Positions 2,577 to 30,405 of a stretch of 64,000 nt of DNA are shown in pieces. Each line of letters opens with the position of its first letter. The first letter of the stretch is position 1. The translations under genes and the position numbers were made by a program. The stretch comes from Bacillota bacterium. Its GTDB lineage: Bacteria; Bacillota; SHA-98; Ch115; JABLXJ01. The notes under the pieces were generated by a model. It made no database searches, had not been told where the DNA came from, and was given only the letters and a program-made list of their open reading frames with translations. The stretch covers positions 19,125-83,124 of the forward strand of contig DUMQ01000136.1 of the NCBI GenBank assembly GCA_012839815.1. Reading direction: 5' to 3'.

Positions 2577-3482
2577 GTGAAACCAAAGGTAGGCTTTATC
2601 GGCCTCGGGATCATGGGAAAGCCGATGGCAAAGAATGTGCTTAAAGCAGGCTATGAGCTTACAGTCTTCAACCGTACATCATCCAAGACAGAAGAATTGA
2701 AGCGGACAGGAGCCAAGGTGGCCTCTTCCCCTGCGCAGGTAGCCAGGGAATCCGACATAGTTATAACGATGGTGAGTGATTCCCCTGATGTCAGAGAGGT
2801 GGTTCTTGGAAAGAACGGCATAATAGAGGGATCGCGCCCGGGTCTGATTCTCATTGACATGAGCACCATTTCCCCTCAAGTAACCGTGGAGATCAATCAC
2901 GAACTCGGACGAAGAGGCGTAGAGATGCTTGACGCCCCGGTAAGCGGTGGGGAAAAGGGTGCGATCGAGGGAACCCTATCAATTATGGTGGGGGGCAAGA
3001 AGGAAGTATTTGAAAGGTGCCTTCCCATATTGAAATCCATGGGAAGGAAGATAACCCACATTGGACCGAGCGGCGCTGGTCAGTGGGCAAAGCTCTGTAA
3101 CCAGGTGCTAGCCTCTCTTAACCTCCTTGCCGTATGTGAGGGATTGGTGCTAGCAGCCAAGGCCGGCCTCGATATCAATAAGGTGATCGAAGCCCTGTCC
3201 GGAGGGGCGGCACAATCATGGGCGCTCTTGAATCAAGCCCCTAAGATCGTTGAGCGGGATTTCTCGCCGGGCTTTCTGGTAAAGCTCCACCAAAAGGATT
3301 TAAGGCTTGTCCTATCCGCAGCGGAGAGTGTTGGCGTATCTCTACCTGGTACGAGTTTGGTTCACCAGCTTTACAATTCCATAGAGAGTGAGGAAGGCGC
3401 CAGCATGCTTGGTAATCATGCCCTTATTAAGTCATTGGAAAAACTTGCCGGGTGTGAGGTTAAGTCGCAAGTGTCCTCGTGA
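2577..3482 (+). CDS. garR: 2-hydroxy-3-oxopropionate (tartronate semialdehyde) reductase, 3-hydroxyisobutyrate-DH family.
   Basis: GTG start. The N-terminal Rossmann motif is GFIGLGIMGKPMAKN and the length is 301 aa. The gene sits in the context of gcl. Confidence 0.8.
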   Translation: MKPKVGFIGLGIMGKPMAKNVLKAGYELTVFNRTSSKTEELKRTGAKVASSPAQVARESDIVITMVSDSPDVREVVLGKNGIIEGSRPGLILIDMSTISPQVTVEINHELGRRGVEMLDAPVSGGEKGAIEGTLSIMVGGKKEVFERCLPILKSMGRKITHIGPSGAGQWAKLCNQVLASLNLLAVCEGLVLAAKAGLDINKVIEALSGGAAQSWALLNQAPKIVERDFSPGFLVKLHQKDLRLVLSAAESVGVSLPGTSLVHQLYNSIESEEGASMLGNHALIKSLEKLAGCEVKSQVSS

Positions 3483-24298: not shown

Positions 24299-27103
24299 CT
24301 ACCTGAGGAGCTTCTGGCGGAGCTCGTGGAGCCTCTGGAGCGCCTGGATGGGGGTCATATTATCAAGGTCAAGGTCCCTGATGCAATCGAGAACCTCCTG
24401 ACCGGCGCAATCCCCCATGATTCCGCCATCTCCGGCCTCCCCGGCCGCGGCAGCATCGCCCCCGCCGATGCCACGCTGGTCACACTCCCCCTCTTGCTGC
24501 GCAGATTTTAACTGCTCCGCTAACTCCACCCGCTCCGCGGGTACCGCCATATCGAAGGGTGCCGCCATATCGAAGAAGGATAGCTGGAGCCTCTCCGGGT
24601 TCCTCCTCTCCAGGTCCTTCAAGATCTGCTCCGCCCGCCTGCAAAATGCGGCATCAAAGCCGGCCATCCGCGCCACGTTGATGCCGAAGCTCCGCGCCAC
24701 GGGCCCTGGAGCTATCTTGTAGAGGAACACAGGCTTGCCCTCCTCGACGACGGTTTCCATGTGATAATTCCTGACCCCCTCGACCTCCCCTTCAAGCCTG
24801 GTCAGCTCGTGAAAGTGGGTGCTGAAAAGCACCTTGCACCCGCCCGCCCGGGCCATTGCTTCCACATAGGCCTGGGCTATGGCTATGCCGTCATATGTGG
24901 ATGTCCCCCTGCCCAGCTCGTCCACTAGCACGAGCGAGTGCTTGGGGAGCCGGTCGGCATGTTGTCCGGCTCCAGGGCGAGGGCGGCGACGCGCGGCGGC
25001 CACTAGGTGTTCCCGGGCCTCGATCATCTCCATCATGAAGGTGCTATAGCCAGCGGAGACATCATCACCCGCCCCGATGCGCGTGAGAACCTGATCCACG
25101 ATGCCTATCCTGGCTTCCCTGGCGGGCACGAAGCTCCCCATCTGGGCCATTATGACGATCAGCGCGACCTGCCTGATGTATGTCGATTTACCGGCCATGT
25201 TGGGACCCGTAATCAGCATGACCTGGTTCTCCTGGGGGATGAGGACTGTATCGTTGGGCACGAAGACTCCATCGAGCATCGCCTCAACCACGGGGTGGCG
25301 GCCGTCTTTGATTATGATGGAATCCCCGGCGTTCACCTCGGGCCGCACATAGCCGCGCCGCTCAGCTACCTCCGCCAGGGAGGCGAAGACATCGAGTTCG
25401 GCAATGAGCGTGGCGACCTTCAGAATTCTCTCAGCCTGGGCGCTCACCTTATCGCGGATATCTACAAAAAGGTTATATTCGATCTCGATGATACGCTCCT
25501 CCGCGCCGAGGACCTGGGACTCAAACTCCTTCAGCTCGGGGGTTATGAAACGCTCGGCGTTGGCCATGGTCTGCTTGCGGATATAATCCTCAGGGACGAG
25601 GTGGAGGTTTGGTCGGGTCACTTCTATATAATATCCAAACACTTGGTTGTAGCCGACCTTCAGGGACTTGATGCCCGTCCGCTCGCGCTCGCGCGCTTCG
25701 AGGTCCGCAATCCACGTCTTACCCTCGTTCTTTACCCTGCGGAGGCGGTCGAGCTCTGCATCATACCCGTCCCTGATCATGCCGCCCTCCCTCACAGTGG
25801 CTGGCGGATCGCTGACCAGGGATTTGTCGAGCAGGTCATGAATATCCTTCAGGTCGTCGAACCGGGACGCGATCCCCTCAAGAGCCGGCGAATCACACCC
25901 CTGGAGCGCCATTTTGATGCCCGGCAAGGCCCCGAGCGACGTAGACAGCGCCACAAGGTCGCGGGCGCTGCCCAGCCCGCAGGAGATCCGGCCGATGAGG
26001 CGTTCTATGTCGCGGATGTCCTTCAGGAGCCGTCTCAGGTCATCCCTCAGCATCAGGTTGCCCACAAACTCCTCAACAGCTGAGAGCCTCCTGTTGATCT
26101 CATCGAGATCGAGCGAGGGCTGTTCGATCCACCTGCGAAGCAGCCTACCTCCCATGGGGGTGACAGTGAGATCGAGCACAGAAAGGAGGGAGCCCTTGCG
26201 CGACCCGTCCCTTGCGTTCTCGGTGAGCTCCAGGCTCCTGCGCGTCGAGGCGTTCATCGTCATATAGTTGGCCGTCGAGTAGACCTTTAGCTCCACAATG
26301 TGGGCAAGCGAGGATTTCTGCGTCTCCCTCAGGTAGGCCATAAGCGCCCCTGCCACGCTCACGGCAAGCCCGGAGGTGTCCCTGGAGTCCCTGGAGGAAT
26401 CAGGGTCATGGATACCGAACGCCTCCAGCGATGCGACCTGGAAGTGCTCGAGCAAGACGCGCCGGGCCGTCCCCGGCGAGAAATGCTCCGCTCCGTAGTA
26501 CGTGCAGGAAAGCCCACGGAGGCCGCTGAGAAACTCGTGAAGCCTCTCGTTCTCCCGCACGCCGGGCCCCACCAGGCATTCGGAAGGCTCGATCCGGGCT
26601 ATCTCATTCACCAGGCGCCTTTCGACATCCTCGCCCGTGATCTCCGTGACGATGAACTCGCCTGTCAAAACGTCGCAGGCGGCCAGGCCGGCCTTACCGC
26701 GGTCAAGGGCGATCGCTGCGATGTAATTATTGACCTTCTCCTCCAGCATGGAGAAGTCGGTGACCGTGCCGGGCGTAACGACCCGGATGACCTCCCTCCT
26801 GACGATCCCCTTTGCAAGTCTCGGGTCCTCAACCTGCTCGCAGATGGCGACCTTATGGCCGTTCTTCACGAGCTTGCCGATATACATCTCGGCAGCGTGA
26901 TAGGGGACCCCGCACATCGGCATGCGCTGCCCCTTCCCAGCCTCGCGGGATGTGAGGGTGATCTCGAGCTCGCGGGATGCAAGCTCAGCATCTTCATAGA
27001 ACATCTCGTAAAAATCGCCGAGGCGAAAGAAGAGTATAGCGTCGCTATACTGCTCCTTTATTGCCTTGTATTGCCGGAGCATAGGGGTCAAGGCATCACT
27101 CAA
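24299..27103 (-). CDS. mutS: DNA mismatch repair protein MutS.
   Basis: The N-terminus MSDALTPMLRQYKAIKEQY..FYEMFYEDA matches MutS. Walker A is GPNMAGKST. At 934 aa it carries an extra low-complexity stretch near the C-terminus. Confidence 0.95.
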   Translation of the reverse strand: MSDALTPMLRQYKAIKEQYSDAILFFRLGDFYEMFYEDAELASRELEITLTSREAGKGQRMPMCGVPYHAAEMYIGKLVKNGHKVAICEQVEDPRLAKGIVRREVIRVVTPGTVTDFSMLEEKVNNYIAAIALDRGKAGLAACDVLTGEFIVTEITGEDVERRLVNEIARIEPSECLVGPGVRENERLHEFLSGLRGLSCTYYGAEHFSPGTARRVLLEHFQVASLEAFGIHDPDSSRDSRDTSGLAVSVAGALMAYLRETQKSSLAHIVELKVYSTANYMTMNASTRRSLELTENARDGSRKGSLLSVLDLTVTPMGGRLLRRWIEQPSLDLDEINRRLSAVEEFVGNLMLRDDLRRLLKDIRDIERLIGRISCGLGSARDLVALSTSLGALPGIKMALQGCDSPALEGIASRFDDLKDIHDLLDKSLVSDPPATVREGGMIRDGYDAELDRLRRVKNEGKTWIADLEARERERTGIKSLKVGYNQVFGYYIEVTRPNLHLVPEDYIRKQTMANAERFITPELKEFESQVLGAEERIIEIEYNLFVDIRDKVSAQAERILKVATLIAELDVFASLAEVAERRGYVRPEVNAGDSIIIKDGRHPVVEAMLDGVFVPNDTVLIPQENQVMLITGPNMAGKSTYIRQVALIVIMAQMGSFVPAREARIGIVDQVLTRIGAGDDVSAGYSTFMMEMIEAREHLVAAARRRPRPGAGQHADRLPKHSLVLVDELGRGTSTYDGIAIAQAYVEAMARAGGCKVLFSTHFHELTRLEGEVEGVRNYHMETVVEEGKPVFLYKIAPGPVARSFGINVARMAGFDAAFCRRAEQILKDLERRNPERLQLSFFDMAAPFDMAVPAERVELAEQLKSAQQEGECDQRGIGGGDAAAAGEAGDGGIMGDCAGQEVLDCIRDLDLDNMTPIQALQRLHELRQKLLR

Positions 27104-27288: not shown

Positions 27289-27801
27289 TTACCCATCATC
27301 CCTAACATGCCGGTAGTTCCAGGCCCGTAACTCCGCAAGCTCAATACCGTCAGGGTATTTCAGCGAGCCGCCGCCGCTCGCCATCACCCTCAATTCCAGA
27401 GCCCGCTCGGGGTTATCATGGAGGTAATCTACGAGATTTCGGATGAGGCACATGGTAGCAGGGGTTATATAGTGCTCGATTCCCTCAACCTGCCCGTCGA
27501 CATCCACCCCGCGGGCCGCCCCGAGGGCGCGCAGGAACGCTTTGAGCATCCTGTCGCGCCACACAAGGAACCGCCCTATCTCCTCGCCCCTGTGCGTGAG
27601 GACGATATTTCTATACTTCTCGTACCGCACAAGGCCGGCCTCGTCAATCTTCTGGATCATGCGTGTGATGGACGAGGGCTGGACGTCGAGCGCCTCTGCA
27701 AGCTCGACCATGCGGAGAGAGCCCCGCTCCCGGATCATCCTGTAAATCATTTCAAGATAGTCCTCCATACTCTCCGTCAGCATGATATCACATCTCCTCA
27801 A
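27289..27801 (-). CDS. DtxR/MntR-family metal-dependent transcriptional regulator.
   Basis: MLTESMEDYLEMIYRMIRERG..VELAEALDVQPSSITRMIQKI matches MntR/DtxR. The likely start is M7 at 27783. It lies downstream of feoB. Confidence 0.85.
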   Translation of the reverse strand: MRRCDIMLTESMEDYLEMIYRMIRERGSLRMVELAEALDVQPSSITRMIQKIDEAGLVRYEKYRNIVLTHRGEEIGRFLVWRDRMLKAFLRALGAARGVDVDGQVEGIEHYITPATMCLIRNLVDYLHDNPERALELRVMASGGGSLKYPDGIELAELRAWNYRHVRDDG

Positions 27802-29363
27802 CGCATCCCAAGCAATCTAGCTAGCCACGTTACGCCAAGACACGCAGCCGATGCGACAAGCAACGGCAGGATGACGGCGATGAGCGCCCACTTGGCACTC
27901 CCTGCCTCCTTGCGTATGGTCCAGAGCGTCGTGCCGCAAGGGTAATGGAGGAGCGAGAAAAGCATCATCGAGAGGGCCGTCAGCCACGTCCAACCGTGCC
28001 CCTCCACGAGCAGTGCCCTGAGGGATTCGAAGCTTTCGACCTCCAGCATCTTCCCGGCCGAGAGATAGCTCATGAGCAAAATGGGAAGGACGATTTCATT
28101 GGCCGGGAGGCCGAGGATAAAAGCCATTATAATGAAGCCATCCAGCCCCAGAGCGCGTCCAAAGGGGTCGATGAAAGCTGCAGCGTGAGCTATGATGCTC
28201 TTGCCCTGAATAAAGGTGTTGGCCAGGACCCAGGCGATGCCCCCGGCAGGGGCCGCCACAGTAACGGCCCTCTGCAGGACAAATGCCGTCCTGTCAATTA
28301 ACGACCGGATGAGGATCCGCCCCACCTGAGGTTTTCGATACGGGGGCAATTCGAGCGTAAACGATGATGGCACGCCGCGTAATATCGTCCCAGCGAGAAG
28401 CCAGGACACCAGGAGCGTTATGGCGATCCCGACCAGCACGAGCCCCACAACTACGGCCGCGGCCACGGCTGTGCTGTAAGCGGGCATCACGGCCCCACCC
28501 ATGAAAATCGTAGCAAGCGTAATCAGCAGAGGGAAGCGGCCGTTACAGGGAACGAAATTATTCGTAAGAATTGCGATCAGCCGCTCCCGTGGTGAATCTA
28601 TGATACGGCACGCAATGACGCCCGCCGCGTTGCAGCCGAAGCCCATGCTCATCGTTAGCGCCTGCTTGCCGTGCGTCCCCGCGCGTTTAAAGAGGCGGTC
28701 AAGGTTGAAGGCCACGCGTGGGAGATAGCCCAGGTCCTCAAGCAGGGTGAAGCACGGGAAGAATATGGCCATGGGAGGCAGCATGACCGAAACAACCCAT
28801 GCCACGGCCCGGTAAACGCCGAAAACGAAAAAGCCGTGAAACCAGCCCGGTACGCCCAGCCTCACGCACAACTCGGATAGGCGCGCCTCGATCCCGAAAA
28901 ACAGCGACGCCAGCACCCGGGATGGGTAATTCGCCCCTGAAAGTGTTATCCAGAACACGATGCCGAGCAACAGGAGCATTATGGGGTAGCCCCACAGGCG
29001 TGAGGTCAGGATATCGTCGAGCCTTTGGTCCCAGTCGATCACCCGTGACCCCGGGGACCGGGCGCCCTGCCTGCCCGCCCCGCCTGCAACCACCTTGCGG
29101 GCGATGGCTTCGGCTTGCCTGTAGATGCTGCCTACTATGCGATCATGGATATCGCCCTCCAGGATATCGCCATCCGGCTGACGGCCTGGCATCCCCGTCC
29201 TACCTGGCCCCCGGGGCTGGCCCAGACTGCCGCTACTATCATTTGCCGGCTTATTTGGCTTATTTGTAGTTACCGGCTTATTTGCCGGCTGTTTAGGCTT
29301 CCTGGTAACCGCGCATGTACTGGAGTCGATGCTCTTTATCCTGTCCGTGAAGGTCCTGTCCAT
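27798..29363 (-). CDS. feoB: Ferrous iron transporter FeoB, membrane (gate/nucleoside-recognition) portion.
   Basis: Multi-TM protein with FeoB core motifs (MSMGFGCNAAGV, SPRERLIAILTNNFVPCNGR). Its first 75 aa are a low-complexity K/P/N-rich stretch, and the ORF overlaps the G-domain ORF in another frame. Confidence 0.8.
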   Translation of the reverse strand: MDRTFTDRIKSIDSSTCAVTRKPKQPANKPVTTNKPNKPANDSSGSLGQPRGPGRTGMPGRQPDGDILEGDIHDRIVGSIYRQAEAIARKVVAGGAGRQGARSPGSRVIDWDQRLDDILTSRLWGYPIMLLLLGIVFWITLSGANYPSRVLASLFFGIEARLSELCVRLGVPGWFHGFFVFGVYRAVAWVVSVMLPPMAIFFPCFTLLEDLGYLPRVAFNLDRLFKRAGTHGKQALTMSMGFGCNAAGVIACRIIDSPRERLIAILTNNFVPCNGRFPLLITLATIFMGGAVMPAYSTAVAAAVVVGLVLVGIAITLLVSWLLAGTILRGVPSSFTLELPPYRKPQVGRILIRSLIDRTAFVLQRAVTVAAPAGGIAWVLANTFIQGKSIIAHAAAFIDPFGRALGLDGFIIMAFILGLPANEIVLPILLMSYLSAGKMLEVESFESLRALLVEGHGWTWLTALSMMLFSLLHYPCGTTLWTIRKEAGSAKWALIAVILPLLVASAACLGVTWLARLLGMR

Positions 29364-30096
29364 GAAAATACCTCCAACCCAGAGGTAGCTGGGTCAGCGT
29401 CTGCGGCGCTATATCCCGTATCGCATTGATCATAGTCGTGTCGCCCTCGATAAACCGGAGAGCCACCCAGCGGGGGTTCAATCGATCGCCGATAGCCCTG
29501 GAGAGGCCTGGCAACAACTCCTGAATAGCACGCTCCAGCTCGGGTTCGTAGGCGACACACCTTGGGGAGGTTGCATACACGCCGGTTACAATATCGTAGA
29601 CAATGTCTTTCAGCGCGACCAACCCCTCCCCGCTGCGAGCGACCGTGGCCACGGCTGGGACGCCAAGCTCGTGTTCCAGGGCCTCAACATCCACATATAT
29701 TCCCTTGCGCTGTGCCTCATCTATTAGATTTACGCCCACCACCACCCTGCCGGTGATCTCGATGACCTGGAGAACGAGATTCAGGTTTCGTTCAAGGCAT
29801 GTCGCGTCAACCACAACGATGACGGCATCCGGCCGCCCAAAGCATAAGAAGTCGCGTGCGATTTCCTCCTCTACGGAGTTGGCAAGAAGTGAATACGTCC
29901 CGGGGAGGTCCACCAGGGTGAACGTCCTGCCCCTATGAGTGTATCTCCCCTCAGCCCGTGATACGGTCTTCCCGGGCCAGTTTCCCGTGTGCTGGCGCAG
30001 CCCGGTGAGGGCGTTAAAGATCGTGGTCTTTCCTGTATTAGGGTTTCCCATCAACGCGACAACGGGTTGGAGGCGCTTGCCGTCCACCTGGGTCAT
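29293..30096 (-). CDS. feoB: Ferrous iron transporter FeoB, N-terminal GTPase (G-domain) portion. It is split from the membrane portion.
   Basis: G1 GNPNTGKTT, G3 DLPG, G4 NLID. 267 aa, ending 71 nt inside the downstream ORF. Confidence 0.85.
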   Translation of the reverse strand: MTQVDGKRLQPVVALMGNPNTGKTTIFNALTGLRQHTGNWPGKTVSRAEGRYTHRGRTFTLVDLPGTYSLLANSVEEEIARDFLCFGRPDAVIVVVDATCLERNLNLVLQVIEITGRVVVGVNLIDEAQRKGIYVDVEALEHELGVPAVATVARSGEGLVALKDIVYDIVTGVYATSPRCVAYEPELERAIQELLPGLSRAIGDRLNPRWVALRFIEGDTTMINAIRDIAPQTLTQLPLGWRYFHGQDLHGQDKEHRLQYMRGYQEA

Positions 30097-30129: not shown

Positions 30130-30405
30130 TCATTCGCCATTTGCAGGACGCACGAGAATCCGGGCGGACTCCTCCCTGCGAAGGGCGATGATCGCCCCGC
30201 GAATGCGAAACGCGACCGGGTCACCGATCGGGCTGTGCCGCACGGCCTGGACCCGAGTGCCAGGCACCAGGCCGAGATCGAGAAGCCTCCGCCTTACGGC
30301 GCCGCCTACCAGTATCTCATCTACAATGCCTACCCCACCGACCGGCAGGTCGCATAGGCGCAGGCGCAACTCATGGCCGGCCATCGCTTGCGTCGCACCA
30401 GTCAT
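30130..30405 (-). CDS. feoA: FeoA.
   Basis: 91 aa SH3-like FeoA (LCDLPVGGVGIVDEI..RRLLDLGLVPGTRV). Confidence 0.85.
   Translation of the reverse strand: MTGATQAMAGHELRLRLCDLPVGGVGIVDEILVGGAVRRRLLDLGLVPGTRVQAVRHSPIGDPVAFRIRGAIIALRREESARILVRPANGE

Follow-up and report, generated by a model that had tools for sequence, protein, structure and literature searches.

A probable two-gene form of the ferrous-iron transporter FeoB with a long gene overlap in a member of the Bacillota

Introduction

The canonical ferrous-iron transporter FeoB is a single polypeptide, described as an equivalog by TIGR00437 and represented here by the crystallised NFeoB fragments of E. coli, Thermotoga, and Klebsiella and by the fused Bacillota proteins P0077 and P0044. 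In other Bacillota, including Crassaminicella, Desulforamulus, Marinisporobacter, Sporomusa, and Paenibacillus species, FeoB is split into two proteins. The first contains FeoB_N and half of FeoB_Cyto, the second contains the other half of FeoB_Cyto followed by Gate, FeoB_C, and Gate, and the genes are arranged in the order feoA, GTPase gene, permease gene, with a permease start that is preceded by a Shine-Dalgarno (SD) sequence and overlaps the GTPase stop. NCBI names the homologues "FeoB small GTPase domain-containing protein" and [quoted passage not shown], respectively. A search of a literature library for two-gene FeoB yielded no paper treating this form.

The window analyzed in this study, a 64,000-nt stretch of a Bacillota contig, contains a feoB locus of two overlapping reading frames, for which an earlier note had offered three readings: a genuine two-piece FeoB, a gene inactivated by a frameshift, or a slippage-prone phase switch. 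Comparison with the split and single-chain systems suggests that it is very probably a functional two-gene FeoB ferrous-iron transporter, rather than a dead gene or a phase switch.

Results

Organization of the locus

The GTPase ORF (G piece; 30096..29293, minus strand, 267 aa) and the permease ORF (M piece; 29363..27798, minus strand, 521 aa) have 71 nt in common (29293-29363), and the M piece is read in frame +1 with respect to the G piece; the coordinates, strand, frames, and overlap reported in the earlier note are all exact. The two genes lie in a predicted operon of the order feoA - feoB (G piece) - feoB (M piece) - dtxR-like repressor, with the following features:

30130..30405, minus strand: feoA, first gene of the operon, 91 aa, Pfam FeoA E=3.2e-20; the same position is filled in the related loci L002 and L003
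29293..30096, minus strand: feoB G piece, a stand-alone NFeoB of 267 aa with the GTPase domain and the N-terminal half of the cytosolic helical domain
29370..29375, minus strand: candidate SD GGAGGT, read from the sequence, 6 nt 5' of ATG 29363 and within the G-piece coding sequence
29293..29363, minus strand: 71-nt overlap, shared by the end of the G-piece gene and the beginning of the M-piece gene
27798..29363, minus strand: feoB M piece, permease, 521 aa counting from M1; head at residues 1-67, helix at 68-95, then the Gate/FeoB_C membrane domain
29246..29296, minus strand: imperfect in-frame repeats coding for (K/N)(Q/K)P(A/V), the K/P/N-rich stretch
29190..29192, minus strand: alternative start codon M58, the ATG of public annotations, from which a protein of 464 aa would begin 100 nt past the end of the G piece
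29147..29175, minus strand: in-frame 15-nt duplication (GDILE/GDIHD) directly 5' of the homology onset; Tandem Repeats Finder period 15, 1.9 copies
27289..27782, minus strand: DtxR/IdeR-family iron-dependent repressor, last gene of the cluster; Fe_dep_repress 1.1e-19, Fe_dep_repr_C 6.1e-08

A dtxR-like gene is also found 3' of feoB in L002, L003, and L004. A search for a second feoB copy within the 64-kb window found none, and a search for an operator 5' of feoA returned two short palindromes only, neither of them convincing.

Domain content of the two pieces

The G piece, which starts at ATG 30096 or GTG 30087, matches Pfam FeoB_N over profile positions 3-154 of 156 (E=9.4e-60) and aligns with the crystallised NFeoB chains 3k53 and 3a1s, the motifs G1 (GNPNTGKT) and G3 (DLPG) being kept; by this match and this alignment it is an N-terminal FeoB-type G domain. 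Each of its best 120 homologues is a stand-alone protein, with a length of 230-313 aa (about 260 aa). The G piece is predicted to be a soluble GTPase, the counterpart of the crystallised NFeoB fragments.

The M piece has the features of the polytopic membrane domain, namely two stretches of Gate (1.2e-29), FeoB_C (1.4e-15), and the Cys/Pro/Asn pore residues, and the pore and gate invariants GFGCNAAG, PCNGRFP, and HxPC are all present. Stand-alone proteins of 442-498 aa (about 465 aa) account for 116 of its best 120 homologues. A comparison of the M piece with solved structures gave no match at E<=0.01. In an AlphaFold2 model (pTM 0.72) the permease is confident, and residues 1-67, with pLDDT<50, are predicted to be disordered. 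Homology to FeoB permeases begins at about residue 69-71 (DIHDRIV...), in agreement with the earlier observation that FeoB-like residues appear only after a low-complexity head.

On the G piece FeoB_Cyto is matched over profile positions 1-46 of 90 only. The M head of the window has no Pfam match to FeoB_Cyto, even at E<=10, and M helix 68-95 was assigned to this domain through its alignment with relatives. It aligns with the FeoB_Cyto helix of the fused P0077 and with the last helix of the NFeoB crystal 2wia; in P0077 this helix (RDxIVxxIYxxAExI) falls within FeoB_Cyto and itself lines up with that final helix of 2wia. In the split relative P0005, the head matches FeoB_Cyto profile positions 48-90. 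As judged from these alignments, the FeoB_Cyto helical domain appears to be present and divided between two predicted chains, its first half on the G piece and its last helices on the M piece.

The domain content of the two pieces appears complementary and complete. All domains and invariant motifs of canonical FeoB appear to be shared, the G piece corresponding to crystallised NFeoB and M helix 68-95 to the last NFeoB helix; the difference is that canonical FeoB is one polypeptide and the FeoB of the window is two. Neither piece reaches the TIGR00437 cut-off for a single-polypeptide equivalog (204.6 bits for G and 177.9 for M versus 315.65), and the ORF frames differ.

Distribution of split FeoB

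Among 94 related FeoB loci 46 are split, and in the tree of M proteins these form a deep clade holding both the window locus and L002; about four changes between split and fused forms suffice to explain the tree. The window locus has the arrangement of this form, with adjacent same-strand genes for a G piece of the ~260-aa class and then an M piece of the ~465-aa class, 3' of feoA. Of 45 split loci, 38 have an M start that lies within the end of the G gene (median overlap 11 nt, range -150 to +71 nt), and 37 have an SD match of at least 5 nt before the M start. The M frame is +1 relative to G in 24 of these loci and +2 in 18, and in the remaining three it is the same frame with a stop.

The split proteins of the Bacillota genera listed above are 60-68% identical to those of the window, which differ from them in three respects. 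The overlap is the longest in the sample (71 nt versus a median of 11); the M head is also the longest (70 aa versus a median of 25, that is, about 45 aa extra) and is K/P/N-rich; and a further small insertion, the second one, occupies residues 95-102 of the M piece. The peculiarity of the window locus is a matter of degree only, in the length of the overlap and of the head.

The closest relative and the integrity of both genes

Scans for closer relatives of the junction found at most 67% identity in genomes and at most 63% in metagenomes, so that L002, from a Bacillota metagenome-assembled genome (GCA_013178125.1, JABLXJ010000002.1), is the only close comparator. Its G and M proteins are 80% and 83% identical to those of the window, the gene order is the same (feoA-G-M-dtxR-mutS-mutL), and so is the +1 frame relation. 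L002 conserves the GGAGG-spacer-ATG arrangement within the G tail, with GGAGG 7 nt before the ATG and an overlap of 56 nt, and the G-tail motif QY(M/R)(R/H)GYQ is common to both loci. Its low-complexity regions are unrelated to those of the window: its G tail carries an N/G/Y-rich insertion of 46 aa, and its M head, 42 aa long, is S/T/E-rich.

Two overlapping frames with a low-complexity junction, in a sequence from a metagenome-assembled genome, could point to a single feoB inactivated by a frameshift, or to a frameshift introduced by a sequencing or assembly error. We consider this highly improbable. Purifying selection acts strongly on each half (dN/dS versus L002 of 0.142 for G and 0.163 for M, at dS 0.8-1.1), and a contig from an independent assembly (ENA ERZ925057, run DRR066655) is identical, base for base, through the junction. 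The frame relation and the start recur in L002, the split is ancestral and common to dozens of genera, no single indel fuses the frames in such a way that homology runs through the junction, and the M frame is closed by stops upstream of 29393. The earlier suggestion of an inactivated gene is therefore not upheld: dN/dS is about 0.15 in both halves, the catalytic and pore motifs are all intact, and the split goes back to the ancestor of the clade. Of the three original readings, it is the genuine two-piece FeoB that has strong support, as relatives share the two-ORF layout, in which the M piece has a ribosome-binding site of its own. This is the outcome that the earlier note had set as a refutation of the more exotic readings.

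Repeats at the junction

The 12-mer CCGGCTTATTTG occurs at the junction in two exact copies (29246 and 29273) and one copy with two mismatches (29255), at offsets of 9 and 18 nt; Tandem Repeats Finder reports a 9-nt unit in 2.1 copies. Thus the threefold tandem repeat described earlier holds as three similar 12-mers lying close together, two exact and one imperfect, and not as a clean array. Across the window the 12-mer has eight matches versus 6.1 expected, which is not above chance, and its local cluster of three alone is notable. The low-complexity stretch of the M head likewise exists, but spans approximately residues 22-66, not the 75 or so codons first estimated. The GC content at 29246..29296 is 44%, compared with 56% window-wide. 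The overlap holds a further in-frame 15-nt duplication (29367-29353 / 29352-29338, FHGQD/LHGQD) that L002 lacks, and the longest homopolymer at the junction is at most 5 nt.

The local cluster of similar 12-mers and the other short duplications at the junction might suggest phase variation, in which slippage in a contingency tract would turn FeoB expression on and off. Such loci are recognized by a long perfect repeat with a unit other than a multiple of three, or by a long homopolymer, within the ORF or promoter, and the junction has neither: there are only two exact copies, non-adjacent, and no homopolymer exceeds 5 nt. Moreover, every offset (9, 18, and 27 nt) is divisible by three, so that gain or loss of a unit keeps the frame and produces no phase switch. 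The tract lies downstream of the G stop, its length is the same in both assemblies, L002 has a wholly different low-complexity sequence here, and the DtxR-type repressor of the operon offers conventional iron regulation. With repeats that are few, imperfect, multiples of three, and past the G stop, and with the same length in a second assembly, the phase switch proposed earlier is extremely unlikely.

The K/P/N stretch is better seen as a lineage-specific, fast-evolving, and presumably disordered insertion in the M head, which would have arisen via small in-frame duplications within a structurally tolerant linker and would have no switching role. That in-frame changes of repeat length in this head would tune how tightly the free GTPase is coupled to the permease is conceivable but very unlikely.

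Translation start of the M piece

Two starts may be considered for the M piece: M1 (29363), with a strong and conserved SD, and M58 (29192), as annotated. At the predicted start ATG 29363, which overlaps the G stop, the M piece has an SD of its own, GGAGGT, at ideal spacing; M58 is preceded by a weak AGGA only, 5 nt upstream. According to the NCBI and ENA gene calls, which give a protein of 464 aa from MPGRQPDG (P0001, 100% identical), the same two-gene FeoB would begin its M piece at M58, and the K/P/N stretch would be an untranslated 100-nt spacer that is open by chance. This length fits the family norm of about 465 aa, and residues 1-67 show neither predicted structure nor homology beyond L002. 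The chance that the 57 extra codons stay open was estimated at p ~0.1 for this GC content, which is weakly significant.

Several observations argue for M1. M58 is absent from L002, whereas the M1 ATG and its SD are kept there. A 100-nt gap would be atypical, since 38 of 45 split loci overlap, and a start at M58 would leave 13 aa ahead of the homologous helix versus a median of 25. The reading-frame-preserving spacing of the repeats also speaks against an untranslated spacer. Before the homologous region L002 has, besides the SD-led ATG, a single ATG, which lacks an SD and also lies inside the G ORF; because no usable start lies beyond the G ORF, the low-complexity M head of L002 must be translated. 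Gene calling itself may bear on the annotation, as Prodigal disallows same-strand overlaps longer than 60 nt. We assume that this limit alone would force the M58 call here, yet permit the 56-nt overlap of L002. The M58 start is possible, though we regard it as the less likely one; it would imply that the translated regions do not share the 71 nt, which is doubtful to the same extent. The public permease start may be about 57 codons too short, with the Prodigal overlap rule as a possible cause.

Hairpins sequestering the SD were considered as a device coupling the two genes. The minimum-free-energy folds pair the SD both in the window and in L002, but no better than shuffled sequences (z = -0.07 and -0.38, respectively).

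The sequence just ahead of the M start, GGAGG-UAU-UUU-C (29375-29364), resembles the frameshift site of prfB. An SD-like element stands 3 nt ahead of UUU_C; here tRNA-Phe might slip forward by one nucleotide, after which reading would go on in the new frame at the ATG that opens the M ORF. Programmed +1 frameshifting of this kind could yield fused full-length FeoB in some rounds of translation. Against this, the A-site codon is an ordinary CAU, neither a stop nor rare, and the slippery codon is not conserved, being replaced in L002 by AAC-CUC-C. Ordinary initiation fully explains the SD geometry, and since split relatives use all three frame relations, a common recoding mechanism cannot apply. 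Programmed frameshifting at this site is very unlikely, and there is equally little reason to expect low-level +1 slippage at SD-UAU-UUU-C, 1 nt before the M-piece ATG, that would add a minor covalently fused FeoB to the separate G and M proteins.

Discussion

As judged from comparative sequence analysis, the two-gene form of FeoB is widely conserved, and the locus described here appears to be a normal case of it with an unusually long floppy linker. For the presumably functional two-gene transporter we propose the following scheme. The SD and ATG of the M piece are embedded at the end of the G-piece gene, around its last 71 nt, and ribosomes ending or crossing the G piece would initiate on the M piece by translational coupling. 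The G and M polypeptides would then re-associate, probably by completing the helical bundle, and the re-associated pair would work like single-chain FeoB.

For annotation, this means that the locus should not carry a pseudogene or frameshift flag. The wider implication concerns the whole clade and is no discovery specific to the window locus. Because about half of the clade is split within the helical domain and is under purifying selection, the GTPase can presumably act on the permease in trans. Natural split FeoB pairs could therefore offer a ready system in which to examine the gating of the pore by the G domain.

The feo operon and its two feoB reading frames

The feo genes of the window form a run of four consecutive genes on the minus strand, in which FeoB is encoded by two ORFs, one for the soluble GTPase half (the G piece) and one for the membrane permease half (the M piece).

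30405..30130, minus strand: feoA, first of the four genes
30096..29293, minus strand: feoB G piece, 267-aa ORF with FeoB_N (E=9.4e-60) and positions 1-46 of 90 of FeoB_Cyto, the Pfam profile of the helical domain
29375-29370, minus strand: Shine-Dalgarno (SD) sequence GGAGGT, 6 nt upstream of ATG 29363
29363..27798, minus strand: feoB M piece, 521-aa ORF with Gate (two stretches) and FeoB_C
within the G/M overlap: 15-nt in-frame duplication FHGQD/LHGQD, missing in the closest relative, L002
directly before the start of the homologous region: 15-nt in-frame duplication GDILE/GDIHD
27782..27289, minus strand: gene of a DtxR/IdeR-type iron-dependent repressor, last of the four genes

Re-reading of the sequence confirmed the ORFs, their 71-nt overlap and their differing frames as described in the earlier note; the M piece lies in the +1 frame. 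Stop codons close this frame just upstream of the M-piece ATG, so no single indel would restore an unbroken FeoB whose homology runs through the join. The feo-dtxR cluster is followed by mutS (window 24299-27103 and downstream; mutS and mutL at 6353-9497 in L002), and this synteny is kept in both loci despite about 20% protein divergence.

Distribution of split FeoB

The two-ORF FeoB is the norm for the FeoB clade of the window. When the M piece was searched against 5.8 billion proteins, 116 of the 120 matches listed (61-100% identity) were stand-alone permeases of 442-498 aa that lack a G domain, the others being two full-length fused FeoB and two fragments of fused proteins. The G piece likewise gave 120 listed matches, every one of them stand-alone (230-313 aa, no membrane domain). 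The NCBI names are "FeoB small GTPase domain-containing protein" for the G homologues, and "nucleoside recognition domain-containing protein" or "ferrous iron transporter B" for the M homologues. Among 97 related loci fetched, 94 have both parts, split in 46 and fused in 48. In a neighbour-joining tree of the permease domain, which requires only about four changes between the two states, the split loci form a deep and diverse group including Desulforudis, Syntrophaceticus, Symbiobacteriaceae, Aneurinibacillus, Paenibacillus, Virgibacillus, Marinisporobacter, and some Acidobacteriota, with the window and its sister L002 well within it.

FeoB seems to have passed between the fused and split forms repeatedly and with evolutionary ease. 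Congeneric Tepidibacter species differ in this respect (T. thalassicus P0044 versus T. formicigenes P0040/P0206), and the lone fused loci L006 and L086 fall inside split clades. Split FeoB also occurs in three acidobacterial MAGs (L053, L060, and L082; Bryobacteraceae, Terriglobia, Acidobacteriota) nested in the Bacillota split clade, with a conserved G tail ...IALQGAQ, a weak or absent SD and, in one case, a 150-nt gap; these genes may have been acquired by horizontal transfer.

Junction geometry

Of the 45 split loci free of N runs, 38 have a best-supported M start that overlaps the G stop, and 37 have an SD match of at least 5 nt ahead of the M start; for the 45 the overlap has a median of 11 nt (range -150 to +71 nt). 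The two-piece FeoB, one of three readings offered by the earlier note, is strongly supported by relatives that commonly share the layout, usually with a separate SD for the M piece. Relative to G, 24 loci have the M piece in frame +1 and 18 in frame +2; in three the frame is the same, with an intervening stop. The M head, counted up to the conserved RDxIVxxIY helix, is 25 aa long at the median. With an overlap of 71 nt and an M head of 70 aa, the window exceeds the rest of this sample in both measures, ahead of L002 (56 nt, 42 aa). The window is an outlier in degree within an ordinary arrangement that is probably translationally coupled.

A prfB-like +1 frameshift at GGAGG-UAU-UUU-C, joining the two frames, is formally possible, but the site has no slow A-site codon and is not conserved, L002 reading AAC-CUC-C; since relatives use all three frame relations, such a frameshift cannot be general. 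Minimum-free-energy folds pair the M-piece SD with downstream or adjacent CCUCC / ACCUUC (window 29330-29395; L002 3985-4005, where GGAGG-AA-CCUCC stands immediately ahead of AUG). Such a hairpin would suit translational coupling; in both loci its stability is no better than that of shuffled sequence.

The start codon of the M piece

Public calls (NCBI, ENA) start the window M piece at ATG 29192 (M58), giving 464 aa and no overlap (P0001, the identical public entry; L004 4001-5395), whereas the L002 M piece is called from an overlapping start with a 56-nt overlap. From the sequence features we consider ATG 29363 (M1) the probable start. It has a strong SD, compared with AGGA only at M58; L002 retains both this SD and this ATG, and does not retain M58; an overlapping, coupled start is the rule of the family; the repeats are spaced in frame; and a start at M58 would leave an M head of only 13 aa. 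The weaker candidate, M58, is favored by a product length equal to the family norm, by the lack of homology or predicted structure in residues 1-67, and by the weak significance (p about 0.1, an estimate) of an ORF that stays open for 57 further codons. Prodigal disallows same-strand overlaps of more than 60 nt, a limit that would force the M58 call in the window yet permit the 56-nt overlap of L002. The difference between the two calls fits this limit and suggests systematic mis-calling of long coupled overlaps.

L002 (MAG GCA_013178125.1), with 80% identity to the window in the G piece and 83% in the M piece, shares the order feoA-G-M-dtxR-mutS-mutL, keeps TGGAGG-spacer-CATG at the position homologous to M1, and conserves the G-tail motif QY(M/R)(R/H)GYQ. 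Ahead of the homologous region, L002 has just one further in-frame start, an ATG that lacks an SD and likewise lies within the G ORF; the low-complexity M head of L002 must therefore be translated.

Repeats, low-complexity sequence, and gene integrity

The tandem repeat noted earlier as threefold at 29245-29300 is indeed a cluster of three, but only two copies of the 12-mer CCGGCTTATTTG are exact (29246 and 29273), that at 29255 having two mismatches; Tandem Repeats Finder reports a 9-nt unit in only 2.1 copies. The copies are offset by 9 and 18 nt, both divisible by three, and the coding strand reads N-K-P-A/V units. Together with the two 15-nt duplications, these in-frame repeats indicate that the junction grew by small frame-preserving duplications.

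The low-complexity sequences of L002, an N/G/Y-rich 46-aa G-tail insertion and an S/T/E-rich M head, are unlike those of the window, as would be expected of a fast-evolving disordered linker. The L002 insertion, NSGNNNGYNDWNNGGYSGYSGYNGGNRNNGRN (L002 3900-4056), is prion-like, and the window has only a short tail there; in this lineage the two sides of the junction are both hot spots of low-complexity expansion. A second lineage-specific insertion in the window, AGGAGRQGARSPGS (29063-29087, M-piece residues about 93-106), comes after the last cytosolic helix, is linked with a 13-nt repeat (1.9 copies), has pLDDT<50, and has no counterpart in any compared relative, L002 included. A further insertion, peculiar to L002, is the 23-aa RMGETTASAVEPVDSGVQAACGS in a membrane-domain loop of its M piece (P0002 residues about 252-275), which neither the window nor any other relative shares.

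By the Nei-Gojobori method, comparison of the window with L002 gives dN/dS values of 0.142 (G piece) and 0.163 (M piece) at dS 0.8-1.1. The residues invariant in the FeoB family are present, and the feoB genes of the window are not decaying. An independently assembled biogas-fermenter metagenome contig (ENA ERZ925057, locus L004) equals the window at 3200 of the 3201 operon bases compared, the sole difference over 3.2 kb being at 28242, in the M piece and far from the junction. The proposal of a frameshift-inactivated gene, or of an assembly error, is contradicted by these values and residues, by the near-identical second assembly, and by L002, the junction geometry and the clade-wide split. 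A slippage-prone phase switch for iron uptake, also proposed, is at odds with repeats that are few, imperfect, frame-preserving and located after the G stop, with the identical junction in the second assembly, and with the conventional iron repressor in the operon.

The cut within the helical domain

FeoB_Cyto covers residues 176-260 of the fused relative P0077, whose helix RDQIVTAIYRQAEAIAAAV aligns with the last helix of crystallised NFeoB of the Klebsiella/E. coli type (2wia, to residue 259). The window G piece ends at profile position 46. Positions 48-90 are matched by the M head of P0005, a split relative, in register though short of the Pfam cut-off (E=0.004), and the natural cut therefore falls in the middle of the helical domain. 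The two chains would reassemble by completing the split helical bundle. AlphaFold2 (44-sequence alignment) modelled the permease confidently (pTM 0.72), with an M-piece helix at 68-95 and residues 1-67 and 95-102 below pLDDT 50.

Cysteine or histidine occurs within the last six G-piece residues in 21 of the 45 split loci. Short Cys/His-rich ends (...GHGVTACH, ...GGCCHGA, ...EADGCE, ...EAECYE, ...VACFYE) are found in L067, L069, L070, L088-L095 (Paenibacillus group), L048, L021, L064, and L007; the window tail has three His and no Cys. Such tails could be metal-binding or docking elements peculiar to the split form.

Two-gene FeoB is very widespread and already recognised by annotation pipelines; our literature search found no paper describing or testing it. 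The window locus belongs to this known type and is set apart by its overlap and its low-complexity head, each the longest among the loci sampled. The clade-wide natural split within the helical domain is modestly useful for studies of the FeoB mechanism.
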